DNA of 64,000 nucleotides from Candidatus Saccharimonadota bacterium (GCA_034520885.1 JAXHNE010000009.1:130431-194430); one strand, 5' to 3'. Counted from the first letter of the stretch, positions 3,315 through 63,692 are shown. The notes: a model not told the origin generated them from the sequence alone. Numbers and translations: made by a program.

Positions 3315-3348
3315 CATATGGAAAACGTAATGCGCGTATTTTATCGGG

Positions 3349-4800: not shown

Positions 4801-4859
4801 GCTCAGTTGACAGTAGTCAAAAGGCTACCTATAGTAATAAGGGTAAACGAAAAATAAAA

Positions 4860-5777
4860 ATGCAACACACTCGTCCACATCAACGCGAAGATTTCGCTCG
4901 CCGCACCGCGCGTCCGAGCACTGACGGGTTCGTACGCCGCGGAGAAACCGGTTCTTACCAACGGCGCTCCAGCGGTATGATCCCCGGTAACGACGAAGAA
5001 TATATGATTTCTCTTGGCGCGCAAGCTTCCCGTAGGGCTTCCACGCCTCTGCCCAAACAAAGCGTCACGGAAAAAATTGTTTCCGCGCTGGATACGGTGC
5101 GGCGGCGAATTGCCCGGCAAAAGCAAACCCTGAACCAGGCTTCGCTGGCCATAGTCGGTATCGTGGTGCTGGTGGGACTCGTTGGCTTGCAGCTTTCCGG
5201 GCAGCACGATCCGGTTACTGCGAATGACGACGACCGCCAGCTTTCGCAAAACAACGGCGACACCCCGCATGGCCGAGCTCCGCATAATCAAGGCGCTTAT
5301 GCCGCGGCTTCGGATATGCCCGAGCGGCTCGTCATAAACAAACTGGGGATAGATACCCGCGTCACGCGCCTTGGCGTGCGGGAAAATAGCGAACCTAAAT
5401 ACCCGCAAAATATTTACGACGCCGGCTGGTACGAAAACAGCGCCAAACCCGGCGATAAAGGAGCGGCATTGCTTATCGGGCATATCCAGGGTGCGGAAAA
5501 ACAAGGGGTATTCCACGATTTGGCCAATTTGGTACCGGGCGATGAATTCCAGGTGGAAACCGGTGACGGTACCATACGGAATTACTATATCGTTAAAATG
5601 GAAGTCTACGATCGCGGACAGGTAAATTATGACGAAGTGTTGCGAACCGGCTTGGACGGCAAACCGGGCTTGAACTTATTAACCGCCGTGGGAGCGTTCG
5701 CGGCTAATTCCGATGTCACCCAGCAACTCGGCGTATTCGCCATAGAAAAAAGCAGCTTTCTGGACGAAAACGAGTAA
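4860..5777 (+). CDS. Sortase-fold protein (class E/F-like) lacking the catalytic Cys
   Basis: 305 aa with a basic N-terminus and TM helix (LAIVGIVVLVGLVGL). Sortase blocks LVINKLGIDTRV, GWYENSAKPGDKGAALLIGHI and VPGDEF are present. The TLxTC position reads LNLLTAVG (Ala in place of Cys). Confidence 0.6.
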   Translation: MQHTRPHQREDFARRTARPSTDGFVRRGETGSYQRRSSGMIPGNDEEYMISLGAQASRRASTPLPKQSVTEKIVSALDTVRRRIARQKQTLNQASLAIVGIVVLVGLVGLQLSGQHDPVTANDDDRQLSQNNGDTPHGRAPHNQGAYAAASDMPERLVINKLGIDTRVTRLGVRENSEPKYPQNIYDAGWYENSAKPGDKGAALLIGHIQGAEKQGVFHDLANLVPGDEFQVETGDGTIRNYYIVKMEVYDRGQVNYDEVLRTGLDGKPGLNLLTAVGAFAANSDVTQQLGVFAIEKSSFLDENE

Positions 5778-5948
5778 GCCCATAAAAAGGTTTTACATTG
5801 CGAAACGTTTCACAAATCCGTATATTAGATAGTAGGATTTGCATTTTGAGAGTCCGACTGGAAAATTTTGATTATCTCTTTGAAAAAGCTGGCTAAAGAA
5901 GTGAAAGTGATTGTCGCTTAGCAAAGAGGCTTATAGAAAGGAAACACT

Positions 5949-7463
5949 ATGGATCCATTGACTTTAGTGCTCGCAGTGGGCGGGCTTGGTATTGGGTTTG
6001 CGGGAAGCAACGCCGTCAACAATAAAAAACTCGGAGCGGCCAAGGCCAAGGCCGACAAGGAACTAAAAAATGCCCAAAAAGAGGCCGAAAAAGCGCTGGA
6101 AGACGCCAAAAAAGAGGCGGCCAAAGTCGAGGAAAAAGCCCGGAAAGACGAAGAAGAGCGCCGTAAAGAAATAAAAGACACCGAAAAACGTTTGGCCAAG
6201 CGCGAAGAAACGCTGGATAACAAGCTGGACGATCTGGACAAGCGCGCCGAAAATTTGCGAAAAGGCGAAGACGAAGTCGAGGAGCTAAAAAACGAAATTC
6301 GTAAGATCCGCGAAAAGCAGCAAGAAAAGCTGGAAAAAATCGCCAAGCTTAAAAAAGAAGACGCCGCGGAAAAGCTCATGAAGATGACCGAGCGGGATAT
6401 CAAGGACGACCTAAAAGGCCTGATAACCAAGATACAAAATGACACCAAGGAAGACGCCGAAGACCGTGCCGCGAGCATTCTGGTCGGCGCTATGGAGCGC
6501 ATGGCCAGTGAAGTGACCGCGGAACGCACCGTGAGCGCGGTGAAGCTAACGGACGATGAAATGAAAGGCCGGATTATCGGCAAGGAAGGCCGCAACATTC
6601 AGGCCTTGCAGCGAGCTACCGGCGTGGACATTATGGTCGACGACACCCCGGGCATGATTATTTTAAGCAGTTTTGATCCGGTTCGCCGGGAAGTCGCCCG
6701 CCAAACCATGGAAATGCTGATGAAGGACGGACGTATCCATCCGGGACGAATCGAAGAAGTCGTGGAAAAGGCCAGGAAGCAAGTGCAAAAAGAGGTGACA
6801 CGTGCCGGCGAAGACGCCGCGCGGGAAGTCGGTATTATCGGTATTCCAAAGGAAGTTTTGCAGCTACTCGGTGAGCTGAAGTTCCGTACCTCCTACGGGC
6901 AGAACGTCCTCAAACACAGCACCGAAATGGCGCACATTGCCGGAATTATCGCCGAAGAACTCGGCGCAGACGTCAAGACTGCCAAATATGCCGCTTTGGT
7001 GCATGACCTGGGCAAAGCCCTGACCCATAAAATGGAAGGCAAGCATCACCACATTAGCGGCGAGATGCTGCGTAAATACGGTGCGCCGGAAGAGGTCGCC
7101 CACGCCGCGGAAGCCCACCACGATGACATGGAGGCCACGACTACCGAGGCTTTGATCGTGCGGGTCGTCGATGCCATTAGTGCCGCTCGGCCGGGAGCAC
7201 GCAACATTAGCGCGGAAAACTTCGCGGAACGCATGAAAGATCTGGAAAACATCGCCAACGGCTTTACCGGTATTGAAAAATCCTACGCCATTAGCGCCGG
7301 CCGTGAAGTCCGCGTGTTCGTAAAACCGGGCGACGTGGATGACCTTTCCGCTATCCGCTTGGCGCGCGACATCGCCAACAAGATCGAATCCACCATGCAA
7401 TACCCCGGAACGGTAAAAGTAAACGTCATCCGCGAAACCCGCGCAATAGAATTCGCCAAGTAG
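5949..7463 (+). CDS. rny: Ribonuclease Y
   Basis: 504 aa. N-terminal TM helix, K/E-rich coiled coil, KH domain (GRIIGKEGRNIQALQRATGVDIMVDD) and HD domain (HSTEMAHIAG...LVHDLGK). Confidence 0.92.
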   Translation: MDPLTLVLAVGGLGIGFAGSNAVNNKKLGAAKAKADKELKNAQKEAEKALEDAKKEAAKVEEKARKDEEERRKEIKDTEKRLAKREETLDNKLDDLDKRAENLRKGEDEVEELKNEIRKIREKQQEKLEKIAKLKKEDAAEKLMKMTERDIKDDLKGLITKIQNDTKEDAEDRAASILVGAMERMASEVTAERTVSAVKLTDDEMKGRIIGKEGRNIQALQRATGVDIMVDDTPGMIILSSFDPVRREVARQTMEMLMKDGRIHPGRIEEVVEKARKQVQKEVTRAGEDAAREVGIIGIPKEVLQLLGELKFRTSYGQNVLKHSTEMAHIAGIIAEELGADVKTAKYAALVHDLGKALTHKMEGKHHHISGEMLRKYGAPEEVAHAAEAHHDDMEATTTEALIVRVVDAISAARPGARNISAENFAERMKDLENIANGFTGIEKSYAISAGREVRVFVKPGDVDDLSAIRLARDIANKIESTMQYPGTVKVNVIRETRAIEFAK

Positions 7464-7559
7464 TAATTTTTAATCTCGGGGGCCAGTGTCTCAGGTATAC
7501 TGTTGGTATGTCCTGGGAGGTTTTGCCCGAACTCATCGGCCGGAAGAATAAGTTATGCG

Positions 7560-7592
7560 AAATTAAATTTAAATTAAATTTAAATTTAATTT
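7560..7592. repeat. 33-bp pure A/T tract with 11-bp periodicity
   Basis: AAATTAAATTT AAATTAAATTT AAATTTAATTT lies 20 nt upstream of the ATG at 7612. Helical phasing suggests intrinsically bent DNA or an UP-like element. Confidence 0.6.
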
Positions 7593-7611
7593 CGGACGGA
7601 AGGGATTCTTT

Positions 7612-8190
7612 ATGAAAGGAAAAGTGGCCAAATTACCAGGGGTGAATGATAACACCAGGTTTCTTTGCTTTGACCTGGAAAGCAATGGACTGCACGGGAG
7701 GGCGTTCGCGGCCGGGGCGCTGATCATTGATAAAAACGGGGAAGTTCACGATGAGTTTACCGCCCGGGTGGAGATTGAAGGCGAAGTCGATGAATGGGTG
7801 AAAGACAACGTTTTGCCGCAAATAACCGACATGCAAATTACGCACGGATCGTATAAGGCCATGTGTGATTCGTTTTGGCGCTGGTTCGTTCCCGCCCAGG
7901 AAAAAAGTGATTACGTACTGGTGAGCAACGGTTACCCGGTGGAGTACCGGTTTTTGATGGATTGCCAGCAAGCTGATCCAAAGCAGCGGTACTGGGAACA
8001 CCCGTTTCCGGTTATTGACCTCTCGTCACTGCTATTGCCGCTGGGCGAACTCAAGGAGCTGAGCAAGAGTAATTTATTAAAGAAAATAGAACGCAGGATT
8101 GACGTCAAACAACATCACCCGCTCAACGACGCCGAAGTTACGGGATTAATGGCTTTCGAAGCATTACGATTTGCTGGACGCATTACCTAG
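7612..8190 (+). CDS. DEDD-family 3'-5' exonuclease (DnaQ-like)
   Basis: 192 aa. Exo I motif FDLESNG and exo III motif HHPLNDAE. Confidence 0.6.
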   Translation: MKGKVAKLPGVNDNTRFLCFDLESNGLHGRAFAAGALIIDKNGEVHDEFTARVEIEGEVDEWVKDNVLPQITDMQITHGSYKAMCDSFWRWFVPAQEKSDYVLVSNGYPVEYRFLMDCQQADPKQRYWEHPFPVIDLSSLLLPLGELKELSKSNLLKKIERRIDVKQHHPLNDAEVTGLMAFEALRFAGRIT

Positions 8191-8953: not shown

Positions 8954-9030
8954 CGGGGTGTGGCGCAGTTGGCTAGCGCGGGCGGTTTGGGACCGTCAGG
9001 TCGTAGGTTCGAGTCCTATCACCCCGACCA
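8954..9030 (+). tRNA. tRNA-Pro (anticodon TGG), CCA encoded
   Basis: Manual cloverleaf: acceptor CGGGGTG/CACCCCG, D arm GCGC/GCGC, anticodon arm GGCGG-TTTGGGA-CCGTC, T arm GTAGG-TTCGAGT-CCTAT, discriminator A, CCA. Confidence 0.9.
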
Positions 9031-9209
9031 AATAAAGAGTCCATCGAAAGATGGGCTTTTTATTTGGTTAGATTGGGCGTGAAGGGCTCGGACCGTTAGG
9101 CGAAAACAGCCGGGGGCTGTTTGAGGAGTCCTTTGGAGTCCGCTTACTAAAGCGGACGGCGACTGAGGCATTTGTTGGCTAACAAATGTTGCCCGAAGGA
9201 GAAAACTAG

Positions 9210-9231
9210 TCGAGTCCTATCACCCCGACCA
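9210..9231 (+). repeat. Exact 22-nt duplicate of the tRNA-Pro 3' end (att-like)
   Basis: TCGAGTCCTATCACCCCGACCA at 9210-9231 is identical to 9009-9030 (T loop to CCA). The two copies are separated by a 179-bp hairpin-rich insert. Confidence 0.9.
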
Positions 9232-13252: not shown

Positions 13253-13307
13253 GAAAGCAGTCAAGCTAGCTTGAGTATTTTCTGTAAGGGAACGAGAATA
13301 CCTTAGT

Positions 13308-13326
13308 ATTCTCTCCGCCCGCACCA
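13308..13326 (+). repeat. Degenerate (17/19) copy of the tRNA-Gly 3' end
   Basis: ATTCTCTCCGCCCGCACCA compared with ATTCTCGCCACCCGCACCA at 13234-13252. It is preceded by an 8-bp hairpin, GAGAATAC-CTTA-GTATTCTC, and ends 8 nt from the HNH gene stop. Confidence 0.7.
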
Positions 13327-23090: not shown

Positions 23091-23250
23091 TATAAAATTA
23101 TCCGGTTTATCGGATGGTTTTATATGGTAAAGGAAGCGAATGAACTGCTTCATTCGCGTGGGATTCGAACAGGCGCAGCTTTGCCGAGCCATTCAGTGAG
23201 GCAGCGAGCCGGGGTCGACAGCGAAAAGCGAAAGCTTTTCGACTGGTGAC

Positions 23251-23274
23251 TCGAAAATCCCTCCTCGGGTACCA
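23251..23274 (+). repeat. Duplicate of the tRNA-Arg(TCG) 3' end (att-like)
   Basis: TCGAAAATCCCTCCTCGGGTACCA. The last 19 nt (23256-23274) are identical to 23072-23090. The copies are separated by about 160 bp of hairpin-rich sequence. Confidence 0.9.
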
Positions 23275-25818: not shown

Positions 25819-25987
25819 TCCTTAAAGTATAGCAATAAAATCTCCGCCACACATAGATGCATACGAAAATATGTCGAACTCAAAGCATTAAAATAAAACT
25901 CAGCTTTAAAGCCGAGTTAAAGCTGAGTTTTACTATAAAACGAAACAGTTTTTTTGAGTGCAGAGTTTTTGCGGGCCGTTTTTACTT

Positions 25988-26132
25988 CACTTCACTAAAA
26001 TTCCGAGCGGCACACTTCAAGTTAATAAAATTGTGGCAAGCCTGGCGGCCTGCCACACGTAGCCTTGGCGAAGTGTGGAGGGCCTCTCCTTCGCTGAAGC
26101 TTCGGTGAGCAGGCCGGTGGGACTTGGTCACA
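25988..26132. repeat. ~145-bp direct repeat, copy 1, flanking the GIY-YIG gene
   Basis: It aligns along its whole length with 26422-26567. The core GCCTGCCACACGTAGCCTTGGCGAAGTGTGGAGGGCCTCTCCTTCGCTGAAGCTTCGGTGA is identical in both copies. Confidence 0.85.
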
Positions 26133-26169: not shown

Positions 26170-26406
26170 TTATATAAGATGTTTGTTGCGGAACGCTTGC
26201 CCCGAGCCCGTTTTAAGGTATTCTTCGAATTCTAAAGCTCTCCTCTTGGAATTAAACGCACAGTAATAAATAAGCTTTATTGGTCTGTAGCCTTTTGTTG
26301 CCAGAACATTACCCTTCTGATGTTTCTCCAGTCGCGCTTTGACATCCTTTGTTGAGCCAGTATAGGTTTCGCCGGTAGATAATCTTAACAGGTAAACATA
26401 GTACAT
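26170..26406 (-). CDS. Small GIY-YIG nuclease-domain protein
   Basis: 78 aa. MYYVYLLRLSTGETYTGSTKDVKARLEKHQKG...E..LK is the GIY-YIG/URI core. Confidence 0.75.
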   Translation of the reverse strand: MYYVYLLRLSTGETYTGSTKDVKARLEKHQKGNVLATKGYRPIKLIYYCAFNSKRRALEFEEYLKTGSGQAFRNKHLI

Positions 26407-26421
26407 GGACTTATTTTAGCC

Positions 26422-26567
26422 CCACTTCACTAAAGTTTCGAGGGGCACACTTCACGTTAATAAAAAGTGTGGCCGGCCTGATGGCCTGCCACACGTAGCC
26501 TTGGCGAAGTGTGGAGGGCCTCTCCTTCGCTGAAGCTTCGGTGAACAGGCCGGTGGAACTTGGTCAC
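26422..26567. repeat. ~145-bp direct repeat, copy 2
   Basis: See copy 1. Divergence is concentrated in the first ~50 nt. Confidence 0.85.
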
Positions 26568-26666
26568 AGTCTCTCGCGACACCATTTTTATGTGCCGTTA
26601 ATTCAAAAATCTAACTAAAAACTAAAATCCTCCATAGCTGACCCTGAAAGGGTCTGCGACGGAGGA

Positions 26667-26683
26667 TGGAGGGCCCAGTGGGA
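26667..26683 (-). repeat. Exact 17-nt duplicate of the tRNA-Lys 3' end (att-like)
   Basis: TGGAGGGCCCAGTGGGA (plus-strand reading) at 26667-26683 is identical to 26836-26852. It lies downstream of the tRNA in tRNA orientation. Confidence 0.9.
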
Positions 26684-26835
26684 ATACGGGGTATATTCCG
26701 CCCGAGCTGCGAGTAAGGCCTTCGGCTTTCCTCGGTCTCGCTTGAATATCGAACCCCGCTCGCAAGCTCGCTTATGTGGGTTCGAGACACAAACACAACC
26801 AATTAAAACACCCCGGCTATGCGGGGTGTTTTAAT

Positions 26836-27115: not shown

Positions 27116-27397
27116 ATGAGTCCCGTTAGAGCCAAAATACACTATGTATACGTGTTAAAAGGTACGAGTAGTGGTAAATTCTATACGGGCTGCACGTCAG
27201 ATTTACGAAAACGCTATAATGAACACCAGAGCGGTCTTAATAAATCCACAAAGAACCGCGGACCATATGAGCTGATATACTATGAAGCCTGCATGGATGC
27301 CAAGGATGCGTTTACGCGAGAGAAATATTTAAAGACAGGGATGGGAAAGCGCTACCTAAAAAATAGACTAAAGCGTTTTCTGGCTCTAACGGGATGA
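27116..27397 (+). CDS. Small GIY-YIG nuclease-domain protein
   Basis: 93 aa. IHYVYVLKGTSSGKFYTGCTSDLRKRYNEHQSG...REKYLK. Its stop overlaps the folD ATG (ATGA at 27394). Confidence 0.75.
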   Translation: MSPVRAKIHYVYVLKGTSSGKFYTGCTSDLRKRYNEHQSGLNKSTKNRGPYELIYYEACMDAKDAFTREKYLKTGMGKRYLKNRLKRFLALTG

Positions 27398-43757: not shown

Positions 43758-43918
43758 CGTGGTCCCATCGTCCCGGTAGTAACATCAAAGATGTACTACG
43801 GGATACATCTAACGGTCAGGCCTGTCCGCCAAAGCTTTAGCGACGGCGGGACGTCAGGTTCTCTCCGCTGAAGAGCGGACTGAAAATAAGGCGGGTCGAT
43901 TCCGAATCGAACCCCACG
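43758..43918 (+). ncRNA. tRNA-Glu-derived structured element (tRNA-like relic with hairpin insertions; no anticodon)
   Basis: Three colinear blocks are shared with tRNA-Glu at 43946. These are GGTCCCATCGTC (43761-43772, 12/12), GGACGTCAGGTT (43849-43860, 11/12) and CTGAAAATAAGG (43880-43891). They are separated by a 76-nt insert and a TCCGCT-GAAG-AGCGGA hairpin. The ends, CGTGG and CCACG, can pair. Confidence 0.45.
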
Positions 43919-43945
43919 TACGTACGTTACAATAAACCAAGTCGC

Positions 43946-44020
43946 GGTCCCATCGTCTAATGGTTAGGACATCAGGTTTTCATCCTGAAAATAGGGGTTC
44001 GATTCCCCTTGGGATCACCA
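43946..44020 (+). tRNA. tRNA-Glu (anticodon TTC), CCA encoded
   Basis: Acceptor GGTCCCA/TGGGATC, anticodon arm TCAGG-TTTTCAT-CCTGA, T arm AGGGG-TTCGATT-CCCCT, ACCA. Confidence 0.9.
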
Positions 44021-51057: not shown

Positions 51058-54000
51058 GTGCTAAGCGGTTTATACGAAGATTTAAACGATGAACAGCGGA
51101 GGGCGGTTGAAACAACCGAAGGTCCTTTGCTGATTCAAGCCGGTGCCGGATCCGGTAAAACCAAAACATTGACCCACCGGATCGCCCACATTATCGCCAG
51201 TAAAAAGGCCACTCCGCATAATATTTTAGCGGTTACTTTTACCAACAAAGCGGCCGGTGAAATGCGTGAGCGAGTGGCGCTACTGCTTGGCGAAAACCCC
51301 AATAATCGTTCGTTCATGCCCTACATGGGCACCTTTCACGGCATCTGCGTTCGTTTGCTCCGCCAGGACGGTGAATACGTCGGCGTCCCCAAAAATTTCG
51401 TTATATTTGACGAGACTGACCGCCGTTCGGCAATAAAACAGGTAAGTAAACAATTGCATATCGACGAAAAAGCCTTTCCGCCGCGGAGTTTGTCGCACGT
51501 GATTAGCGGCGCCAAAAACGAGATGCTCGGCCCGCGGGAATTTAGCGGTTCGGCGAACTCCCCGACCCAGAAAACCGCGGCTCAGGTGTACCCGGCCTAC
51601 GAGAAGCTGTTGAAAGATAACGGCGCCCTGGATTTTGACGATTTGATCGCCAAGACGGTCGGCCTTTTGCAAAATAATCAGACCATTAGGGAAAAATGGC
51701 AGCGGCAGTTCGCTTACGTCATGATCGACGAATACCAAGACACCAACGCCGCGCAGTATAACCTGGCAAGACTATTGACAAACCAAAATAATAATATTGC
51801 TGTAGTAGGAGACGACTGGCAATGCTTACCCGCGGGCAGTTTAGTAGAGACCGGGGATGGCGGTAAAAAAATAGAGAACGTAAAAGCCGGGGACGTAGTG
51901 AAGTCCGCCAGTGGCTACGGAAAGTCGTCAAAGTTTAAGGTGAACAAGCTTCGGTCTTTCGACTTTAAGGGTGATTTGGTAAGAATTAAAACCGAATCTG
52001 GAAAAGTGCTTACCGCTACACCGAACCACATTATGTTTTCGAGGTGGGGGGTGACAGAAAAATACTACGTTTACCTGATGTATAAAAAAGATAAAGGTTA
52101 TCGTATAGGGCTAGTAAAAGGTAGTAGGTTTGATGGCAAAAAACACGACGTTGGACTTAGGGTCAGAGCCAACCAAGAGCGAGCCGAACGAATGTGGGTG
52201 CTGAAAGTATGCGATTCTCAAGAGGAAGGGGCTTATCACGAAGCACTCCTTGCTTATAAATACGGCATACCGATGCTGGTCTTTCACGCGTATCCGAATC
52301 GGGCGATGAAACTGGGCCAACAATATATTGATAAGCTATTTAAGCGGATAGATACTGAAGATAGAGCCAAAGCGCTTTTTAATGATCAGGGACTATCGTT
52401 TGAATATCCGCACTTTGCGCCTCAGGCCACTTCAAGAGGCGACATTCAAAGAATTAATCTTAATGTTGTCTTGTTCGGCGATAAGCGGGTTACCGTACGA
52501 AGCCCGTGGTCAGCCAGCAGACTGTCCGCTAACACCACGAACCCGGAAGACCTAACGGTATTAAAAGAAGCGGGTGTAACGGTGCGAAGCGCTAAGGCCG
52601 GCACATTCCGCGCGGAAGTCCATAATTTAGATTACGGTAAAATTGAAAATATTTCGCAGTCCATAGCGGCAAACGGTCAAAATGAGCTACAAGTTGTTAA
52701 ATCGGCATTCATGACCAACAGTAAGTTTATGTTTTTGCCGGCCGGGCAGTTGCATCCTGACATGTTGTTGCCAGTCGTCTCCAAAGATAAAGTCGTTGAA
52801 GACAAAATAGTGAGCGTTGAAAAGGTTAAACACAACGGTAAGGTATATGATCTGGATATCGACAAAGTCCACAACTATTCAGCGAATGGGGTAATAGTTC
52901 ATAACTCCATTTATTCGTGGAGGGGGGCTGATTTTCGTAACATTTTAAATTTCGAGCGTGACTACCCGCGGGTTACTACTATAAAACTGGAGCAAAATTA
53001 TCGCAGTACTAAGGCCATCCTGGACGCCGCGCACTCGTTGATTCGCAAAAACCAACAACGTTCCCAGAAAAAATTGTGGACGGACGGGCATTCCGGGCAG
53101 CCGGTCAAAGTAATCGAGGCCTACAACGAACGGGCCGAAGCCGAGCTAATAACGACACGCATCTATCAAGCGCAACAACTCGGCGCCTCTCAGTACGGAG
53201 ATTATGCGGTGTTGTATCGCACCAATGCGCAAAGCCGCTCCATAGAGGAAATGTTCGTTCGCTATGGCATACCGTACCGTGTGGTCGGCGGGGTAAAATT
53301 TTATGACCGTAAAGAAATCAAGGACATTTTGGCTTACCTGAGAGTGATTTATCAGCCGGAAGACCGGGTAAGTTTCGAGCGTATCGTCAATACGCCCACG
53401 CGCGGTATCGGCGCCAAATCGGTGAGCGTTTTCATGGATTACATCAACGTTAGCGGAGTGACATTACGGCAGGCCTTGCAGGACGTTGGCTCACTGGAAC
53501 TTCCCACCAAGGCCAAAAAATCCTTTACCGAACTGGCGGATATTATTCTGAGTTTTCGTGAGGCTATGGACGATATGCCTTTGCCGGAATTACTGGAGTC
53601 TTTACTGCGGCGAATCAACTACCTGGACTTTATCGATGATGGCAGCGCGCAAGGTGAATCGCGCAAAGAAAACGTGCAAGAGTTGCTCAGTGTGGCTCAG
53701 CAGTATCAAGACGTCGGGCTGGCCGGATTTTTGGAAGAAGTTTCTTTGATTAGCGATCTTGATAGTTTGGATCAAAACGGCAATGCGGTGACCCTCATGA
53801 CGCTCCATGCCGCTAAAGGCCTGGAGTTCCCGGTAGTTTTTATGGCCGGGATGGAAGAGTCGTTGTTTCCGCACTCCCGAGCCCTGTACGATCAGTCCGA
53901 AATGGAAGAAGAACGGCGTTTATGCTACGTCGGCATGACCCGCGCCAAACGAGAACTATACTTATTACACACCGCCAGCCGTATGCTGTACGGCGGCGTG

Positions 54001-54327
54001 CAGCATAATCCGCCAAGCCGGTTTATCAGCGAAATAGACGGCTCCTTGCTGGAAACGGAATCAACTTTTGCCGGCCGGCCGCAGTTTAGCGCGGCCAGTG
54101 CCAAGCCTGCCACTCCGCCACGCCCGCCTCAGTTCGTCGACGACATGCCGGACTACGACGAAAGCCAGGAAGCAATTGAATTGCAGCCCGGAGATACCGT
54201 TAAACATCGAATTTTCGGCGAAGGTAAGATTGAGTCACTGGAAGGCGCCACGGCCACTATTCACTTCACGTCAAAAGGTAGAAAAACACTTAATATACAA
54301 TTCGCCCCGCTGGAACGAATACAATAA
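51058..54327 (+). CDS. pcrA: ATP-dependent DNA helicase PcrA/UvrD interrupted by an intein
   Basis: 1089 aa with a GTG start. Motif I AGAGSGKT, motif II DEYQDTN. Motif III is split as VGDDWQ | intein | SIYSWRGA. Motifs V and VI are TLHAAKGLEFP and YVGMTRAK. The extein total is 728 aa. Confidence 0.92.
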   Translation: MLSGLYEDLNDEQRRAVETTEGPLLIQAGAGSGKTKTLTHRIAHIIASKKATPHNILAVTFTNKAAGEMRERVALLLGENPNNRSFMPYMGTFHGICVRLLRQDGEYVGVPKNFVIFDETDRRSAIKQVSKQLHIDEKAFPPRSLSHVISGAKNEMLGPREFSGSANSPTQKTAAQVYPAYEKLLKDNGALDFDDLIAKTVGLLQNNQTIREKWQRQFAYVMIDEYQDTNAAQYNLARLLTNQNNNIAVVGDDWQCLPAGSLVETGDGGKKIENVKAGDVVKSASGYGKSSKFKVNKLRSFDFKGDLVRIKTESGKVLTATPNHIMFSRWGVTEKYYVYLMYKKDKGYRIGLVKGSRFDGKKHDVGLRVRANQERAERMWVLKVCDSQEEGAYHEALLAYKYGIPMLVFHAYPNRAMKLGQQYIDKLFKRIDTEDRAKALFNDQGLSFEYPHFAPQATSRGDIQRINLNVVLFGDKRVTVRSPWSASRLSANTTNPEDLTVLKEAGVTVRSAKAGTFRAEVHNLDYGKIENISQSIAANGQNELQVVKSAFMTNSKFMFLPAGQLHPDMLLPVVSKDKVVEDKIVSVEKVKHNGKVYDLDIDKVHNYSANGVIVHNSIYSWRGADFRNILNFERDYPRVTTIKLEQNYRSTKAILDAAHSLIRKNQQRSQKKLWTDGHSGQPVKVIEAYNERAEAELITTRIYQAQQLGASQYGDYAVLYRTNAQSRSIEEMFVRYGIPYRVVGGVKFYDRKEIKDILAYLRVIYQPEDRVSFERIVNTPTRGIGAKSVSVFMDYINVSGVTLRQALQDVGSLELPTKAKKSFTELADIILSFREAMDDMPLPELLESLLRRINYLDFIDDGSAQGESRKENVQELLSVAQQYQDVGLAGFLEEVSLISDLDSLDQNGNAVTLMTLHAAKGLEFPVVFMAGMEESLFPHSRALYDQSEMEEERRLCYVGMTRAKRELYLLHTASRMLYGGVQHNPPSRFISEIDGSLLETESTFAGRPQFSAASAKPATPPRPPQFVDDMPDYDESQEAIELQPGDTVKHRIFGEGKIESLEGATATIHFTSKGRKTLNIQFAPLERIQ
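51823..52905 (+). mobile_element. Intein (361 aa) in helicase motif III of pcrA
   Basis: It starts with Cys (CLPAGSLVETGDG, block A). Block B is LTATPNHIMF and blocks F/G are VYDLDIDKVHNYSANGVIVHN. The next extein residue is Ser. The central ~200 aa show no clear LAGLIDADG motif. Confidence 0.82.
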
Positions 54328-56085: not shown

Positions 56086-56117
56086 CAACTTCTCTAAGAA
56101 GTAAACCGTACCAGGTG

Positions 56118-56153
56118 TACCACAAACATGTCCGATCGGACATGTTTGTGGTA
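56118..56153. repeat. 36-bp perfect palindrome, copy 2 of the element at 3279-3314
   Basis: TACCACAAACATGTCCGATCGGACATGTTTGTGGTA, located 33 nt after the stop of the PPC gene. Confidence 0.85.
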
Positions 56154-56215
56154 ATCTTGGATTTTTTGTAGGTTTTTTCGTGTTTGTCGGGGCGTTGTTT
56201 TGCTACACTTGCTAA

Positions 56216-56719
56216 ATGAGCACCACAAAACGACAAACTTTCACGCAAAAATGGGCTGTCGCCTCCTTTTTTGGTGATTTGCCGGCAGGGTTTGAATTCC
56301 ATAAAACGAATACGCCCCTTCACGCCACTTTGGCGGGGGTTTTCTCAATTAATCTTAACGGCCAATCAATAGCTGACATACTGAGTAAACACCTAAAAGA
56401 TGCGAACCCGTTCAGTATCAAAGGCGAACAAATCGAACAATGGGGAGAAATAAGCGTGACTACCATTAAAGATTCCGCAGCGTTTAATTCATTGTACAAA
56501 GGCGTGCAAAATGTCTTGCTTAAAAACGGGGCAGCGTTTAACGAGCCACAGTACCTAGCCGACGGTTTTTGCCCTCATGTTACGGTTCAAAAAAGTGAAA
56601 AACTGCAACCGGGAGAAAAGGCGATAATAGACAGGGTAAGTTTGGTCGATATGTTCCCAAATAACGATGGAACTCGCAGGCGAATCACCACGACCTTTAA
56701 ACTAAAAAACTATGATTGA
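56216..56719 (+). CDS. 2H phosphoesterase-superfamily protein (LigT-like)
   Basis: 167 aa with two H-x-T-x motifs (LHATLAG and PHVTVQK) at the expected spacing. Confidence 0.55.
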   Translation: MSTTKRQTFTQKWAVASFFGDLPAGFEFHKTNTPLHATLAGVFSINLNGQSIADILSKHLKDANPFSIKGEQIEQWGEISVTTIKDSAAFNSLYKGVQNVLLKNGAAFNEPQYLADGFCPHVTVQKSEKLQPGEKAIIDRVSLVDMFPNNDGTRRRITTTFKLKNYD

Positions 56720-57479
56720 ACCAAATAAATCGCTTGGTCAACATTGGTTGGCTGACAAAAATGTACTACAGCAAATCGTTGACGCGGCTAATATTACGCC
56801 AGAAGACGAAGTGGTGGAAATCGGCCCGGGTACGGGCACGCTTACCAGGGCGCTTATTGACAATGGTGCGCACGTTACCGCCGTAGAGTTTGACCGAAAT
56901 TTAGTAGATCGCCTACAAGCTGAGTTTCCCGAAGCGCGGGTCGTACGATCGGATATACTGTCGTTCGATCTTTCGCGCATGAAGACTCCTTACAAAATAG
57001 TCGCCAATATACCGTACTACCTTACGAGCAAGTTAATACGCCTACTAAGTGAATCGGCTAATCCGCCTGAGCGAGCCGTATTATTAATCCAAAAAGAGGT
57101 CGCTCAGCGCGTGGCGGCCGCCCCGGGCGATATGTCGCTTTTAGGTGTGAGTGCGCAGTATTATTGGGAGGTATCGCTTGGAATTGAAGTACCCGCCAAA
57201 TTATTTACGCCGCCGCCAAAAGTCGACTCCCAAGTGGTGATTTTAAATAAACGACAGCAGCCACCATTCGGAAAGATCGACGAAAAAAAGTTTTTCCGTA
57301 TCGTCAAAGCGGGGTTTAGTAATCGCCGTAAAACCCTGCTTAATTCATTAAGTGCCGGGTTGCACTTAAGTAAAGAAAACACCCGGCAACCGCTGGAAAA
57401 CGCGGGAATAAAACCGAGCTCTCGCGCGCAAGAGTTATCACTGGAGCAGTGGCACACCCTTTATAAAAACTTTGCTTAA
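56712..57479 (+). CDS. rsmA: 16S rRNA (adenine1518/1519-N6)-dimethyltransferase
   Basis: 255 aa. LGQHWL, the SAM motif VVEIGPGTGTLT, and NIPYYLTS. Confidence 0.9.
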   Translation: MIEPNKSLGQHWLADKNVLQQIVDAANITPEDEVVEIGPGTGTLTRALIDNGAHVTAVEFDRNLVDRLQAEFPEARVVRSDILSFDLSRMKTPYKIVANIPYYLTSKLIRLLSESANPPERAVLLIQKEVAQRVAAAPGDMSLLGVSAQYYWEVSLGIEVPAKLFTPPPKVDSQVVILNKRQQPPFGKIDEKKFFRIVKAGFSNRRKTLLNSLSAGLHLSKENTRQPLENAGIKPSSRAQELSLEQWHTLYKNFA

Positions 57480-57537
57480 AATATCCATAAGTGGTATAAT
57501 TCAGCCAAGCCACGAATGAGTGGTGAGTGATACATAT

Positions 57538-57942
57538 GGGGCTGACTTTAAGCTCGACGTTGGACGTTAACAAGTTAGATCAGCAGGCCGCTTACTCAGC
57601 GTTATAGGGTAACTCAAACTAGATGCAAATTTCGTATCTAAAGCAAAAGCCGGCTTCCAGAATGCTGCTTACGCACTTTTTGGTCAACCAGCTGAAGCTA
57701 CAGCAGTAGCTTAACAGCATACTGCCGCTACGATTTTGACTCCTGATAGAAATCCGTAGTGCCATATTTTTCAGGGTGCCGATTCGTGAGCGGTTCATAA
57801 CGAATCATAAGACTAATGAACCACCTCGTTCGCTATTTTGATTGTTTTAACGCGAAACGAGTACACCCAAACAATCTAAGCCTGTAGGACAGACTAACTT
57901 ATAACCCTTCGGACGCGGGTGCGATTCCCGCCAGCTCCACCA
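57538..57942 (+). ncRNA. ssrA: tmRNA (SsrA)
   Basis: The 5' end is GGGGCTGACTTTAAGCTCGACG and the 3' end is GGACGCGGGTGCGATTCCCGCCAGCTCCACCA (tRNA-Ala-like, G3-U70). A candidate tag frame from GCA 57643 reads AKAGFQNAAYALFGQPAEATAVA, ending at the TAA stop at 57712-57714. Confidence 0.9.
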
Positions 57943-58346
57943 GACTTCGCGCAAGGCTTCGTCTGGCAAGCCATTTCGTAAAACGTTACTTAGAAAACGG
58001 CTTATTTTATAGTATTAGGGACTCGTGCCTGCCAGCTCCACCAGACTTCGCGCAAGGCTTCGTCTGGCAAGCCATTTCGTAAAACGTTACTTAGAAAACG
58101 GCTTATTTTATAGTATTAGGGACTCGTGCCTGCCAGCTCCACCAGACTTCGCGCAAGGCTTCGTCTGGCAAGCCATTTCGTAAAACGTTCCTTAGAAAAC
58201 GGCTTATTTTATAGTATTAGGGACTCGTGCCCGCCAGCTCCACCAGACTTCGCGCAAGGCTTCGTCTGGCAAGCCATTTCGTAAAACGTTACTTAGAAAA
58301 CGGCTTATTTTATAGTATTAGGGACTCGTGCCTGCCAGCTCCACCA
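57943..58346 (+). repeat. Four tandem 101-bp units, each ending in the ssrA 3' terminus
   Basis: Unit ends fall at 58043, 58144, 58245 and 58346. Each unit ends in (C/T)GCCAGCTCCACCA. The units are nearly identical, with single substitutions in unit 3. Confidence 0.92.
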
Positions 58347-58411
58347 AAAATACATCAATCCGCGTTGGTGTTTTTTGTTCGCTTAATAACTATCATTGTA
58401 TAATTTTGGCA

Positions 58412-59443
58412 ATGGCGCTAAAAAACTGGTTTATTGCCAACAAGCATAACAAATTTCACCCGATGGCCTTGCGCCCTGTAGGGTTGGCTATATTCTTTTC
58501 GCTGATTTTAGCAATTAACCCGCTGTATAATTATGTCTCTGCAGGCAAAGTCCAAGTACTTGGCTATGCGACCAATATAAGTGTTAGCGGTCTGCACAAT
58601 CTGACGAACCAGGAAAGAGCTCAGCGCGGACTGCAACCACTGTCGCTTAATTCCACGCTTAACAGTGCCGCGAGCTCTAAGGCAAACCACATGTTCGCTA
58701 ATAACTACTGGGCGCATACCGCGCCTGATGGCACGCAGTTTTCATATTTTGTAACTTCCGCTGGGTATAATTATGCCTCCGCCGGCGAGAATCTGGCCAA
58801 GAATTTTTCGACCTCTGCCGGTGTGATGTCCGGTTGGATGGGCAGCAGCGGTCACAAACAAAACGTTTTGGGGAATTATAAAGACGTTGGTTTTGCTGTC
58901 GTAAACGGTAACTTATTGGGTGAAGACACGACGCTGGTCGTTGCTATGTATGGGTCTAAACAAGTATCGCCAGCCGCCCCACAACCCCAGCCAAAACCGA
59001 AACCCTCATCACAACCTTCTTCACCAACGCCGCAACCCCAGAACACACAATCAGAACCGGAACCTGAACCAGAAGAGCCAGCGCCGGAGGAAGAAAACGA
59101 AGAAAATGCCCAGCAAGAAACAAACAATCAGAATAATGAAGACGAAGAGGAAGCGGTCGAAGCTATTCAGCCAACCAACGGCGATGAAGACGGCGAGGTG
59201 CTGGCATCCTACAACATTAATCCAGTAGATATGTACAACACCTTTAACTGGGGGCAAAAGGCTACCATGTTCTTGCTTTGTGCAATGATACTTCTAAATG
59301 TGATGAAACACACGCTTATATGGCGGGAACAACGGCGCGGGTTGAGGCATATATGGTTGCGCTCGCATCCGCTGGCGCAAGCCTTCGTACTGATATTCGC
59401 CAGTATCATAACCATAACCAGCAGTATCGGTGTTATTAAATGA
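58412..59443 (+). CDS. CAP/SCP (YkwD-like) domain protein with a Pro/Glu-rich linker and C-terminal TM helices
   Basis: Start at MALKNWF; the track start at 58328 lies inside the last ssrA repeat unit. CAP blocks LTNQERAQRGLQPLSLNSTL, NYWAHT, GENLA and GHKQNVL. TGTATAAT at 58396-58403 lies only ~8 nt from the ATG, so the mRNA may be leaderless. Confidence 0.72.
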   Translation: MALKNWFIANKHNKFHPMALRPVGLAIFFSLILAINPLYNYVSAGKVQVLGYATNISVSGLHNLTNQERAQRGLQPLSLNSTLNSAASSKANHMFANNYWAHTAPDGTQFSYFVTSAGYNYASAGENLAKNFSTSAGVMSGWMGSSGHKQNVLGNYKDVGFAVVNGNLLGEDTTLVVAMYGSKQVSPAAPQPQPKPKPSSQPSSPTPQPQNTQSEPEPEPEEPAPEEENEENAQQETNNQNNEDEEEAVEAIQPTNGDEDGEVLASYNINPVDMYNTFNWGQKATMFLLCAMILLNVMKHTLIWREQRRGLRHIWLRSHPLAQAFVLIFASIITITSSIGVIK

Positions 59444-60833: not shown

Positions 60834-61352
60834 GTGAGTAAGACAACACCAAAAAAACAAGCAAAAAAGCGGCAGCAAAATAAGCTGCCGCTTTCGGGTT
60901 CCGCAGGTAAAAAGGGCAAAGCCAAAAGTGCTACAAGCAAAACCAATAAATCTGGCAATCATAAAAGGCGAAGCCCGAGAACAAAAACGTACAACTTGTG
61001 GCTGGGCTCACGCCGCAGTCTTGAGCTAAAGTTTAAGCTCAAAACCAAAAAGAAAAAGCGGTTGACCAAAAAACAGCAACTGGCTCGAAAGAAGCTAAGG
61101 CAAAAAATGCTTGCTTCGGCAATGATAGTGATTGGGCTCGTTGGGCTTTTCTATTTTTCCGCCAATTTAACCGGCCAACGAAATCCACCGGAAATTTACT
61201 CGCCGCCAACTCCGGAAGTTGTTGAGTCTGAGCCGGTTGAAGAAGAGCCCGCAGGGGGCATGACTGCTTCAGCCCCAACAACTTTAAGTATTCCTGACGT
61301 AGATATTAATACTTCTCTCATTACGCTTGGGCGCAATCAGGATGGAACTATG
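60834..61352 (+). pseudogene. Sortase gene, N-terminal third only (basic tail, TM helix, first beta strands), truncated at a compositional breakpoint
   Basis: GTG start, K/R-rich N-terminus, TM helix MIVIGLVGLFYF, then TTLSIPDVDINTSLITLGRNQDGTM. This parallels LVINKLGIDTRVTRLG of the 4860 paralogue. The His and Cys catalytic regions are absent. Confidence 0.6.
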
Positions 61353-63692
61353 AGGATCTTCCTCCCGTTCAACAAAGGCCACGAGAAGGGCGGCGGCAAC
61401 CCCCCGCGGGAGGACGACCACCGGACCGCCTACCTCTGGAAGGAGGTCTGGGCGAAGGACAGCTGGATGGACATCATCCAGCGGTTCATCCACATCGACA
61501 CCGAGGAGATCAAGAAGGACGGCGTCACCGTCGAGGAAGACGAGACGCTGATCTTCCCGCGATATCACCAACTCGAATGCGTCCGAAAGCTGGTCGACAG
61601 CGCGAAACGCGAGGGCTCCGGCGAGGACTACCTCATCCAGCACTCCACCGGGAGCGGGAAGAGCAAGTCCATCGCGTGGCTCGTCCACCGACTCGTCTCG
61701 CTCCACGACGCCAACGACGAGGCGGTCTTCGACGGCGTCGTCGTCGTCACCGACCGCACGATACTGGACGAACAGCTCCGGAACACGATCTACGAACTCG
61801 ACCACAAGACGGGCGTCGTCCACCCGATCACCGGCGAGCACGGTCCGAAGTCGGAGGAACTCGCCGAGGCGCTCGAAGCCGGCAAGCCGGTCATCATCAC
61901 GACGCTCCAGACGTTCCCGTACGTCATCGAACACACGCAGTCGCTCCCGGAACGGGACTACGCCGTCGTCGTCGACGAGGCACACAGCAGCCAGACCGGG
62001 GAGATGTCCGCCGAGATGAAGGGGATCCTCTCCGGGATCGACGAAGACGAGATCGACGACGCCGAGGACGCCATCGTCGCCAACGCGGAAGCCCGGAGCA
62101 AACAGCCGAACCTCAGCTTCTTCGCGTTCACGGCGACGCCGAAGGCGAAGACGCTCCAGATGTTCGGCGAGCCCGACGGCGAGGGCGGCTACGAGCCCTT
62201 CCACCTCTACTCGATGCAGCAGGCCATCGACGAGGGATTCATCCTCGACGTGCTCCAGAACTACACGACCTACGAGACGTTCTACAACGTCGCGAAGGTC
62301 GTCGAGGAGGACCCGCAGGTCCCCGAAAAGAAGGCCGTGAAGGCCATCTCTCGGTTCCTGAAACTCCACCCGCACAACGTCTCACAGAAGGTCGAGATCA
62401 TCGTCGAGCACTTCCGGAACAACACGCAGCACAAGATCGGCGGCAAGGCGAAGGCCATGATCGTCACCTCGTCGCGCGCTCACGCCGTCCGATACAAGAA
62501 GGCCATCGACGAGTACATCGAGGAGAACGGATACGACCTGAGCGCGCTCGTGGCGTTCTCGGGAACCGTCGAAGACGACGGACAGAGCTACACCGAGGAG
62601 GGGATGAACGACGGGATCAAGGAGTCCGAACTCCCGAACGCCTTCGACAGCCAAGCGTACCAGGTCCTCGTCGTCGCCGACAAGTACCAGACCGGCTTCG
62701 ATCAGCCGCTCCTCCACACGATGTACGTGGACAAGAAGCTCTCCGGGATTCAGGCGGTCCAGACGCTTTCCCGTCTGAACCGCACACATCCCGGAAAGGA
62801 GGACACGTTCGTCCTCGACTTCGAGAACGAGCAGTCGGAGATCAAGGAGGCGTTCGAGCCGTTCTACGGGAAGACGACCGTCACGGAGGAGACCGACCCG
62901 CAACACCTCCAGCAGCTCGCGAGCGAACTGAAAGCGTTCCGTATCTACGACCAGAGCGACGTGGACCGATTCGCGGAGGTCTTCTTCGATCCCGAAAACA
63001 CCGGGACAGAGGGCTCACACGCGAAACTGAGTAGTTTGGTACAGCCAGCTCGTGACGAGTTCATGGTCTCGAACGAGGAGACGCAGGAGGAGTTCCGGTC
63101 GACGCTCCGCTCGTTCCTCCGGCTCTACAAGTTCCAGTCGCAGATCGTCAGCTACGCCGATACGCACCTCGAAAAGCTGTACACGTTCGGTCGGTTCCTC
63201 TACAAGGAGCTCCCGAAGGGCTCGGGCCAGCCCAGCGTCGAGTTCGACGACGAACTCGCGCTTCAGTACTACCGGCTCGAAAAGTCGGAGGAGGGAGACA
63301 TCGAACTCGACACGACCGACGGAGAGGTCGAGGGACCGACAGAGACCGGAACTGGTGGCGGAAGTGACGACGATGAAGTCGAACTCTCCACCATCGTCGA
63401 GAAAATCAACGAGAAGCTCGGGACCGATTTCACCGAGGCCGACCAGCTGTTCCTCGAACAGCTGAAGGAGGACGCGCTGGAAGACGATCACCTACGCAGG
63501 TCCGCGAAGGTCAATAGTCGCGAGAACTTCGCTCTGGAGTTCGACAGTGCGCTCACCGAGATGTTCATCGACCGAATGGACCAGAACGAAGAGTTGTTCG
63601 CCGAGTTCATGGACAACGACGAAGTTCAGGAAGTGATCACGGAGCATCTCCGCCAGCAGGTGTATCAAGAAAGCCAGCAAGCCGAAAGCTGA
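61353..63692 (+). CDS. hsdR: Type I restriction enzyme R subunit, lacking its N-terminal nuclease domain; in frame with the sortase fragment (track ORF 60834-63692)
   Basis: RIFLPFNKGHEKGGGNPP...HRTAYLWKEVW, helicase motif I HSTGSGKSKS, motif II VVVDEAHSSQ, TATP, and motif VI QTLSRLNRTHPGK. The protein is very Asp/Glu-rich with GC3-rich codons (GAC, GAG, CTC, GTC, ACG), and is haloarchaeal-looking. Confidence 0.8.
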   Translation, partial: RIFLPFNKGHEKGGGNPPREDDHRTAYLWKEVWAKDSWMDIIQRFIHIDTEEIKKDGVTVEEDETLIFPRYHQLECVRKLVDSAKREGSGEDYLIQHSTGSGKSKSIAWLVHRLVSLHDANDEAVFDGVVVVTDRTILDEQLRNTIYELDHKTGVVHPITGEHGPKSEELAEALEAGKPVIITTLQTFPYVIEHTQSLPERDYAVVVDEAHSSQTGEMSAEMKGILSGIDEDEIDDAEDAIVANAEARSKQPNLSFFAFTATPKAKTLQMFGEPDGEGGYEPFHLYSMQQAIDEGFILDVLQNYTTYETFYNVAKVVEEDPQVPEKKAVKAISRFLKLHPHNVSQKVEIIVEHFRNNTQHKIGGKAKAMIVTSSRAHAVRYKKAIDEYIEENGYDLSALVAFSGTVEDDGQSYTEEGMNDGIKESELPNAFDSQAYQVLVVADKYQTGFDQPLLHTMYVDKKLSGIQAVQTLSRLNRTHPGKEDTFVLDFENEQSEIKEAFEPFYGKTTVTEETDPQHLQQLASELKAFRIYDQSDVDRFAEVFFDPENTGTEGSHAKLSSLVQPARDEFMVSNEETQEEFRSTLRSFLRLYKFQSQIVSYADTHLEKLYTFGRFLYKELPKGSGQPSVEFDDELALQYYRLEKSEEGDIELDTTDGEVEGPTETGTGGGSDDDEVELSTIVEKINEKLGTDFTEADQLFLEQLKEDALEDDHLRRSAKVNSRENFALEFDSALTEMFIDRMDQNEELFAEFMDNDEVQEVITEHLRQQVYQESQQAES

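Follow-up and report, generated by a model that had tools for sequence, protein, structure and literature searches.

Four tandem 101-bp units fused to ssrA in a Saccharimonadota bacterium: a candidate amplified insertion scar among the trailing units of Saccharibacteria tRNA and tmRNA genes

In a 64,000-nt stretch of Candidatus Saccharimonadota bacterium DNA (GCA_034520885.1, JAXHNE010000009.1:130431-194430; hereafter the window), ssrA, the gene of transfer-messenger RNA (tmRNA), is followed without any gap by four head-to-tail units of 101 bp, each ending in a copy of the ssrA 3' end. With moderate confidence, we read this array as one truncated insertion scar that was multiplied by unequal exchange or slippage between the direct repeats flanking it, and that is probably co-transcribed as a 3' trailer of tmRNA. 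The array is not a chance arrangement, and the module of which it is built is probably without function itself. All coordinates are those of the whole window, and L-numbers denote the related loci that were fetched, among which L049 and L050 are Logan contigs.

ssrA and the four units behind it

ARAGORN and Rfam place an intact ssrA with an encoded CCA over the same span, the match to the tmRNA family RF00023 being full length (86.6 bits, E 1e-33). The 3' terminus of the gene reads ...CCCGCCAGCTCCACCA, a 16-mer, and the tag peptide is ANFVSKAKAGFQNAAYALFGQPAEATAVA. Tandem Repeats Finder reported a repeat at 57930-58346 with a period of 101, 4.1 copies, 98% matches, 0 indels and a score of 820, and base-by-base comparison resolved it into four in-phase units spanning 57943-58346, with 0 nt between ssrA and the first of them. 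The features of the locus are as follows.

57492-57500, + strand: extended -10-like box TGGTATAAT upstream of ssrA, read from the sequence
57538-57942, + strand: ssrA (tmRNA), intact, CCA encoded (ARAGORN and Rfam RF00023)
57943-58043, + strand: unit 1, 101 bp (base-by-base comparison, as for the other units); positions 2-74 (57944-58016) are homologous to an element found in L020 and L113, and a displaced tmRNA 3' end, CGTGCCTGCCAGCTCCACCA, makes up the last 20 nt (58024-58043)
58044-58144, + strand: unit 2, identical to unit 1
58145-58245, + strand: unit 3, like unit 1 but for 58190 A>C and 58232 T>C
58246-58346, + strand: unit 4, identical to unit 1 and followed by the exit flank
57940-57966, and again 58041-58067, 58142-58168 and 58243-58269, + strand: junction hairpin CCAGAC(15 nt)GTCTGG, fold -13.4 kcal/mol, z = -1.36
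58347-58377, + strand: intrinsic terminator AAAAAUACAUCAAU-CCGC-GUUGGUGUUUUUU, called from its fold, the first after ssrA
58412-59443, + strand: gene of a CAP/SCP-domain protein (Pfam PF00188, E 1.3e-16) in the right flank, outside the element; the same protein is encoded on Logan contig L050

These results confirm the initial annotation, which had described four 101-bp units fused to ssrA with ends at 58043, 58144, 58245 and 58346, only two substitutions, both in unit 3, and five copies of the ssrA 3' end. The 13-mer GCCAGCTCCACCA indeed occurs five times in the window, always at this locus, and the 16-mer CCCGCCAGCTCCACCA twice, at the tmRNA end and at the end of unit 3. The substitution at 58232 makes the last 20 nt of unit 3 equal to the 3' arm of the unit behind ssrA in locus L108, and it restores the 16-nt ssrA terminus. 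Outside the terminal repeat each unit has 81-88 nt of non-coding DNA, and no open reading frame (ORF) lies in it. The hairpin that had been noticed at the junctions is present at four of them (ssrA to unit 1, and between units 1 and 2, 2 and 3, and 3 and 4) and is weak; after unit 4 it is absent and AAAA stands there instead. The flank after the array exit reads AAAATACATC.

No promoter or terminator was called inside the array, and the first terminator stands only at 58347-58377, so that the array probably lies within the ssrA primary transcript. As read from the sequence, the four units would probably be co-transcribed as a 404-nt 3' trailer of pre-tmRNA and then trimmed. The box TGGTATAAT is the probable ssrA promoter; a simple sigma-70 scan missed it because it has no -35 box. 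The motif ..AAGTGGTATAGT.. is kept upstream of ssrA in L107, L108 and L109, and the rsmA-ssrA synteny is kept in relatives. These relatives were found via RsmA and are all Saccharibacteria/Saccharimonadales, with a best identity of 67-71%; genome and metagenome scans, protein search and exact-protein look-ups gave none closer than 71% RsmA identity, besides the same strain in one run.

An independent assembly supports at least three tandem units

That one run, SRR26473340, was reached by exact-protein look-up and provided an independent assembly of the same strain as Logan contigs built with k=31. Contig L049 matches 56126-57956 with 100% identity and breaks off after the first 14 nt of unit 1; contig L050, whose flank is likewise 100% identical, begins at 58317, with 30 nt of the array left up to 58346. 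The stop of L049 corresponds to a 16-nt shared suffix plus 14 nt, that is k-1; such a stop at +14 needs the 16-nt suffix to be shared, and therefore the CCC variant of unit 3 must be present in the reads of this run, as otherwise the contig would have stopped at +17. Likewise, the start of L050 at -30 implies that some CCT unit precedes both another unit and the exit sequence. Taken together, and given a clonal population, the two break points imply at least three tandem units. A tandem of at least three units is real, and the exact number of four comes from the window assembly alone.

The array could be an assembly artefact, the true locus having one unit or some other number, with a short tandem repeat that was mis-resolved. 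The window apparently comes from a contig of a metagenome-assembled genome (MAG), the RsmA encoded just upstream of ssrA being identical to MDZ7786523.1 of a Candidatus Saccharibacteria MAG, and units 1 and 2 are identical, which makes the number of units hard to fix with short reads. Moreover, the guanine-plus-cytosine (GC) content jumps from ~45% to ~62% at 61355/61356, in the middle of a sortase gene, and stays so up to 64000, whereas contig L050 continues past 61355 with the rest of the sortase gene followed by GSDH and trehalase genes, with no such jump. A 952-aa 'ORF' at 60834-63692 (SWI2/SNF2, ResIII and T1R domain) is a fusion across this junction, which stands 3 kb downstream of the array and may reflect a chimeric join or else the insertion of foreign DNA. 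On the other side, the k=31 contigs end and start exactly at the branch points predicted for an array of CCT and CCC units, tandem repeats get collapsed and not expanded by short-read assemblers, and an artefactual copy would not carry the two variants of unit 3. We therefore regard an artefact as improbable, and the single-unit artefact, a check proposed with the initial annotation, is disfavoured.

The unit combines a truncated hairpin element with a displaced tmRNA 3' end

The first trace of a homologue came from low-stringency blastn against the fetched loci, as a match 9 nt after the tmRNA end of L020. Positions 2-74 of the unit align to the L020 sequence (3410-3470) that begins at the first base after the CCA (CCA+1) of ssrA, with a local score of 53 compared to 16.5 +/- 2.8 for dinucleotide shuffles (z = 12.9; none of 5000 as high). 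The alignment consists of ACTTCGC(G)CAAGGCTTCGTNTGGCARGCCA, a diverged middle and then TTATTTTATAG. Locus L113 carries the same ssrA-trailing element at the same position. L020 has it once, and there it folds (z = -3.6) into a hairpin of 87 nt in which the first 10 nt of the element pair with the 3' strand to close it (TACTTCGCCA/TGGCGAAGTA); a degenerate copy of the tmRNA terminus comes next, and then a terminator. The window unit ends before the closing strand and runs on instead into TCGTGCCYGCCAGCTCCACCA, it has no terminator of its own, the only one standing after unit 4, and its fold is no better than that of shuffles (z = +1.25). The loss of the closing strand together with this fold argues against a still-active or structured element.

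The last 20-22 nt of the unit have another source. They correspond to the displaced 3' arm of the ssrA-trailing units in the closest relatives L108 and L001, and their fit to the L108-type tmRNA end (..GGTGCCCGCC..) is closer than that to the end of the window's own tmRNA (..GATTCCCGCC..). This displaced copy spans the sequence from the end of the T-loop to the CCA. From the two homologies, the unit is a chimera of a truncated trailing hairpin element and a displaced tmRNA 3' end. A replacement of the window ssrA 3' end by an L020-like end was considered and rejected, as the window differs from L108 only by three T-loop substitutions and its stems are L108-like.

Searches for further relatives of the unit gave little. 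Rfam 15 over 57000-59000 at E <= 1 returned only tmRNA and no family for the unit, and over the whole window only tRNAs and tmRNA. No further copy of the unit body was found in the rest of the window, and among the 113 related loci there was none beyond L020 and L113. Exact-pattern scans of viral contigs with three unit segments and a 24-mer scan of Joint Genome Institute (JGI) metagenome contigs both gave 0 matches, and blastn of the unit against phages and plasmids gave nothing meaningful.

We also asked whether the array could be a functional RNA, with units that are co-transcribed with tmRNA or transcribed from a TATAGT box in each unit and that would work at the RNA level, for instance by luring CCA-directed enzymes or toxins as decoys of the tmRNA/tRNA 3' end, or by serving in pre-tmRNA processing or stability. 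Although no terminator intervenes between ssrA and 58347, and every unit terminates in a tRNA-like single-stranded ...GCCAGCUCCACCA, no promoter was called inside the array. The block ACTTCGC..GGCARGCCA and TTATTTTATAG are kept between genomes with only ~49% RsmA identity, but the closing half of the hairpin is missing in the window, the displaced 3' arms decay freely in L001 and L056, and L107, the closest relative, has nothing behind ssrA. One compensatory change keeps the CCA-containing junction hairpin (CCA|GAC..GTCTGG in the window, CCA|TAC..GTATGG in L020, a change of G:C to T:A); being a single event read from two sequences, it carries little weight. Against an RNA function stand the fold scores of the unit and of this hairpin (+1.25 and -1.36) and the lack of an Rfam match at E <= 1. 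Related units with a structured core, described below, do covary strongly on the sense strand. Altogether we consider a functional RNA array very improbable, and the structured repeat RNA that had been listed as an option by the initial annotation finds no support in the fold, in Rfam or in the lost closing strand.

Trailing units follow many tRNA and tmRNA genes in Saccharibacteria

The array belongs to a wider pattern. In the window, 5 of the 8 tRNA/tmRNA genes, namely tmRNA and four tRNAs, are trailed by a unit that ends in a copy of the gene's own 3' end. Over all fetched loci, such a downstream copy was found for 7 of 23 Saccharibacteria tRNAs and for 0 of 10 tRNAs in loci of other phyla, while the upstream controls gave 0. 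Behind ssrA, the tmRNA 3'-end copy follows a cargo-less segment in L023 (at +185), L011 (+163), L015 (+269) and L108 (+170), and further copies are found in L001, where it is decayed, L056 and L009. The units behind the four tRNA genes of the window are the following.

9031-9231: tRNA-Pro trailing unit, 201 bp, cargo-less (tRNA-Pro at 8954-9030)
13253-13326: tRNA-Gly trailing unit, 3'-end copy 16/18
23091-23274: tRNA-Arg(tcg) trailing unit, 3'-end copy 18/18, with a perfect 11-nt reverse complement of the T-arm
26667-26835, - strand: tRNA-Lys trailing unit, 3'-end copy 17/18, with a perfect 11-nt reverse complement of the T-arm

The unit behind tRNA-Pro has a terminator hairpin, the 5' arm GGGCTCGGACC, complementary in reverse to the T-arm but for two G.U-compatible changes, a B-type core, an exact 22-nt copy of the 3' end (9210-9231) and another terminator, and the B covariance model gives it 69.7 bits. 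The tRNA-Gly unit is a minimal form, the two arms pairing as a perfect 8-bp hairpin with a 4-nt loop (fold z = -3.2). Intact single units are built of a terminator hairpin, the 5' arm, an interior between 4 nt and ~130 nt long, the 3' arm and a second terminator. Apart from the window ssrA unit, the 5' arm is a reverse complement of the T-arm, exact over 7-13 nt (p <= 0.04), in 7 of 14 units.

The core that we call B is found in L001, L009, L015, L017 (two copies), L023, L056, L065, L108 and in the window at 9079-9231, and it stands behind tmRNA, tRNA-Pro, tRNA-Ala and tRNA-Glu in different genomes, with arms that fit each gene. In nine sequences, its 21 predicted pairs are 90% paired, compared to 70% for shuffled sequences and 32-43% after sliding of the partners, and 17 of the pairs show compensatory changes, a number reached in 0 of 500 shuffles. 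The ratio of G.U to A.C of ~3:1 on the sense strand indicates that the folded strand is the tRNA/tmRNA strand, in the form of RNA or of single-stranded DNA. Another core type, A, is present in L011, L015 and L017. Rfam has no family for the related trailing units of the six loci searched, and our literature search found no description of such units. A family of tiny elements placed exactly at tRNA/tmRNA 3' ends thus appears to be widespread in Saccharibacteria and apparently undescribed.

The window ssrA unit shares with these intact units the 3' arm, from the T-loop to the CCA, and lacks the 5' arm and the B core. When the unit was searched for a 5' arm, complementary in reverse to the T-arm, the longest match had 5 nt (p = 0.57), or 4 nt with the L108-type T-arm. 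The covariance model R1 of the B core aligns only the last 31 nt of the unit, as arms, with the interior deleted; the ssrA units score 16.8-18.9 bits (E 0.01-0.03) and the tmRNA end itself 14.6 bits. The B core of L001, L108 and L017 was also considered as a homologue of the unit body, including a version in which the promoter and 5' arm would be fused to the 3' arm, and was rejected as such (p = 0.09-0.43).

The architecture of the intact units suggests how they could be targeted, and we offer the following only as a doubtful proposal. Miniature structured non-coding elements would insert at tRNA/tmRNA 3' ends, with the target set by complementarity, and ssrA arrays would result from repeated insertion into a regenerated target. 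The 5' arm, antisense to the T-arm, and the 3' arm, from the T-loop to the CCA, may pair across the variable interior, with an enzyme acting in trans. By analogy with known systems, such pairing may provide a folded single-strand attachment site, attC- or CTXphi-like, or a guide RNA.

A possible 5'-side counterpart was also observed. At 43761-43945, beginning 185 nt upstream of tRNA-Glu (43946-44020), the 5' end of this gene is repeated over 12 nt (GGTCCCATCGTC), and a segment with a T-arm-like palindrome, GGGTCGATTCCGAATCGAACCCC, comes after it; this may be a 5'-side mirror of the trailing units.

The ssrA 3' end is a site of turnover, with islands and a second array

Loci L020 and L110 are 95-98% identical through rsmA and ssrA, unrelated from the CCA onward for ~390 bp, and then similar again. 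In L017, three different elements stand stacked behind ssrA, namely a 3.8-kb island (4022-8005 of the reverse complement) carrying the gene of a large serine recombinase, a B unit and an A-type unit, and all three close with a copy of the ssrA terminus that is decayed to a varying degree. The recombinase (512 aa, Resolvase and Recombinase domains) has its 3' end abutting ssrA. A homologue with 36% identity occupies the same position in L002 (11252-12781), and a C-terminal remnant is left in L018 (8961-9104). These recombinases of L017 and L002 were considered as partners of the small units; such a role is not obvious, the islands being separate and stacked in front of the small units. L007 (11818-14553) has an island of 2.7 kb that terminates in a displaced tmRNA fragment of 74 nt, whose T-loop is different.

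A second array was found in L111 (3497-3635). It is a perfect tandem repeat of 52 bp, 2.7 copies and 100% identical, which stands behind ssrA after an L110-type element and whose copies end in ..TGCTGGGCACCA; it seems to have been derived by shortening from the element that stands singly in L110 and L074. Mini-units with a CCA end have therefore formed arrays behind ssrA on at least two occasions. Tandem Repeats Finder gave no further array in 108 related loci (L111 was fetched later), and this is weak evidence because short-read contigs tend to break at such arrays. Regarding the earlier remark that a near-identical, cargo-less tandem is not the usual scar of an island, the tandem amplification is indeed unusual, yet it recurs in L111, and single cargo-less units turn out to be common in the clade.

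Stand-alone GIY-YIG ORFs of 78-93 aa, with 37-44% mutual identity, were observed in the window (26170-26406 on the - strand, 27116-27397 on the + strand), in L020 (3547-3792), in L110 (4956-5225) and in L111 (3662-3931). They adjoin the ssrA trailing elements in the three loci, and in the window they flank tRNA-Lys on both sides, the ORF at 26170-26406 lying between two direct repeats of ~155 bp (25979-26132 and 26414-26568; 85-93% identical). These ORFs may encode a nuclease partner of the small elements.

The data on turnover bear on a different origin of the array, namely repeated site-specific insertion. The unit would then be a miniature non-autonomous mobile element, each insertion of which regenerates the ssrA terminus as the next target, with an enzyme supplied in trans, and the array would grow like integron cassettes or CTXphi/RS1 arrays. 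Candidates would be recombinases of the serine or of the tyrosine type, HUH enzymes, or the small GIY-YIG nucleases adjoining such elements in L020, L110 and L111. Several results fit with this, as units with 3'-end copies follow 5 of the 8 window genes and 7 of the 23 Saccharibacteria tRNAs and none elsewhere or in upstream controls, core B recurs behind four kinds of genes with matching arms, L020 and L110 part exactly at the CCA, different elements are stacked in L017, large serine recombinase islands occur at ssrA in L017, L002 and L018, and a second tandem array exists in L111. The window unit itself is truncated, however, without closing strand, 5' arm or terminator, no recombinase was found in the window, and the unit body is seen neither elsewhere in the window nor, except for L020 and L113, in the 113 related loci, nor in the viral, phage, plasmid and JGI metagenome scans. 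In addition, the C at 58232, with ssrA keeping its C, is not easily explained by insertion. We rate repeated insertion as unlikely though a serious possibility, and do not lower it further because the clade has site-specific turnover at CCA+1 and a second array, and because the enzyme may be encoded elsewhere.

Misaligned recombination as the probable origin of the array

We favour instead the multiplication of a single scar, since the unit is truncated and lacks the features of intact units, no recombinase is in view, RecA is present, and L108 looks like a precursor. The window encodes RecA (649-1677) and RecX within an ordinary housekeeping gene content. In its 48 ORFs, Pfam gave no recombinase, integrase, resolvase or transposase (Phage_integrase, Resolvase, Recombinase), and tblastn of the L017 serine recombinase against the window gave nothing. 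In L108 (5192-5417; GCA_041600755.1, 69% RsmA identity), an intact B unit, with its 3'-end copy at +170, stands between the two copies of a perfect 57-nt direct repeat that consists of the last 19 nt of ssrA and its terminator. As judged from this arrangement, L108 is a plausible precursor state, primed for duplication or deletion.

We infer the following order of events and mechanism of amplification. An insertion at the ssrA 3' end, an insertion hot-spot, would have founded the module once. The inserted element would later have been truncated, losing the closing strand of its hairpin, so as to leave a 101-bp module made of the left ~75-81 bp of the hairpin element and a 20-22-bp displaced tmRNA 3' end. 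The module would then have been multiplied head to tail via misaligned recombination between the direct repeats bracketing it, either by RecA-mediated unequal sister-chromatid exchange or by replication slippage. The repeats to misalign would at first have been the 13-16-bp ssrA terminus and later the whole 101 bp, and after the first step ordinary homologous unequal exchange between 101-bp repeats could have sufficed. As units 1, 2 and 4 are identical, the amplification is recent, in agreement with the initial annotation, which had taken their near-identity as a sign of a recent or homogenised array. The type of explanation proposed there, a duplication of the ssrA end of the attachment site (att) type around a cargo-less unit, amplified by recombination, slippage or insertion, is the one that we also favour; on the contrary, the unit is neither an orphan nor a de novo miniature element, given its homology to L020 and L113.

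Several points weigh against this reconstruction. No observation separates unequal exchange or slippage from repeated site-specific insertion, and the second, independent array in L111 hints at a systematic, possibly enzyme-driven tendency. Both substitutions lie in the same internal unit, and a single simple amplification step leaves this unexplained; if the ssrA end had exchanged with a unit end by a crossover left of 58232, the CCC unit would result but not the change at 58190, and neither the recombination nor the insertion route neatly accounts for both. A recombinase could be encoded outside the 64-kb window. The copy number of four is backed only to at least three by the independent k=31 contigs, and the GC jump, with no counterpart in contig L050, means that the window assembly is not beyond doubt.

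Taken alone, the array would be an amplified scar that lengthens the tmRNA precursor by ~400 nt, and a curiosity. The greater interest lies in the family of target-matched structured units; about a third to a half of the sampled tRNA/tmRNA genes are trailed by a cargo-less unit of this general kind in this lineage of reduced genomes. If mobile, these units would be target-matched mini-elements of a new kind and might amount to a programmable insertion system; as functional RNAs, they would form a new tRNA-linked RNA family in Patescibacteria. Such units also break short-read assemblies at tRNA/tmRNA genes and can mislead island finders that use displaced tRNA/tmRNA fragments.

Other features of the window

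Two copies of a long palindrome with a perfect core, TACCACAAACATGTCCGATCGGACATGTTTGTGGTA, are present, one just after recX (3277-3321) and one upstream of a 2'-5' RNA ligase-like gene (56111-56155); from its sequence, the palindrome looks like an operator for a dimeric regulator. The gene of a UvrD/PcrA-type helicase (51058-54327) contains an intein (Hint/Intein_splicing matches, residues ~252-616), and its orthologues in L108 and L110 are ~740 aa long and have none.

Comparison with known systems

In the Islander work (PMC4383910), displaced 3' fragments of tRNA/tmRNA genes mark integrated islands. Like such islands, for which ssrA is a classical target, the window array has an intact target and a direct repeat of its 3' end; in the Saccharibacteria relatives the repeat starts in the T-loop, as in many islands, and real islands occupy the same site in L017 and L002. 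Unlike them, only 81-88 bp of non-coding DNA lie between the repeats here, there is no integrase, and the copies are four and in phase. The array is not recognised as an island by the usual tests because it has neither integrase nor cargo.

The cis-mobilizable elements (CIMEs) that form arrays with integrative and conjugative elements (ICEs) in streptococci are att-flanked units without recombination genes of their own. CIMEs, tycheposons and SGI1 resemble the window array in their att-type direct repeats, in the lack of recombination genes and in forming arrays at a regenerated target, where newer copies push older ones outward. Successive and tandem integrations at tRNA/tmRNA genes are established, with tandem junctions detected experimentally (10.1101/2020.12.28.424599), and tandem integration is known for SGI1 (PMC2297512). 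Unlike the window unit, which is 101 bp long, truncated and the same in all copies, these elements are kilobases long and carry genes.

Integron cassette arrays with attC sites and the CTXphi/RS1 arrays at dif rely on folded single-strand attachment sites. They share with the window array that each unit ends in a recombination site. The intact Saccharibacteria units can be likened, by analogy only, to the attC and CTXphi attP(+) hairpins, in that an inverted arm pairs with the terminal site across an interior of 4 to ~130 nt, near one junction. On the other hand, the window has no IntI/attI, no dif/XerCD context and no attC consensus, and the ssrA unit has no paired arm. No GTTRRRY-type core was seen in the unit by eye, no formal attC model having been run, and Pfam gave no tyrosine recombinase in the 48 ORFs of the window.

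Repetitive extragenic palindromes (REP) and the bacterial interspersed mosaic elements (BIMEs) built from them, palindrome-associated transposable elements (PATEs), IS200/IS605-derived elements and miniature inverted-repeat transposable elements, known as MITEs, are, as here, short, non-coding, hairpin-forming, intergenic after genes and sometimes in tandem (PMC2229807, PMC10969869). The Saccharibacteria units differ in standing strictly at CCA+1 and in duplicating 13-22 nt of the gene end, compared to a target-site duplication of 2-10 bp; they have no terminal inverted repeats, and no Y1/RAYT transposase is present in the window. Minisatellites, or variable-number tandem repeats (VNTRs), which expand through slippage or unequal crossing-over, also consist of near-identical, non-coding, head-to-tail copies, and RecA is present here, but the window array differs from them in that its unit boundaries are the exact 3' end of a functional RNA gene, which is carried in each copy.

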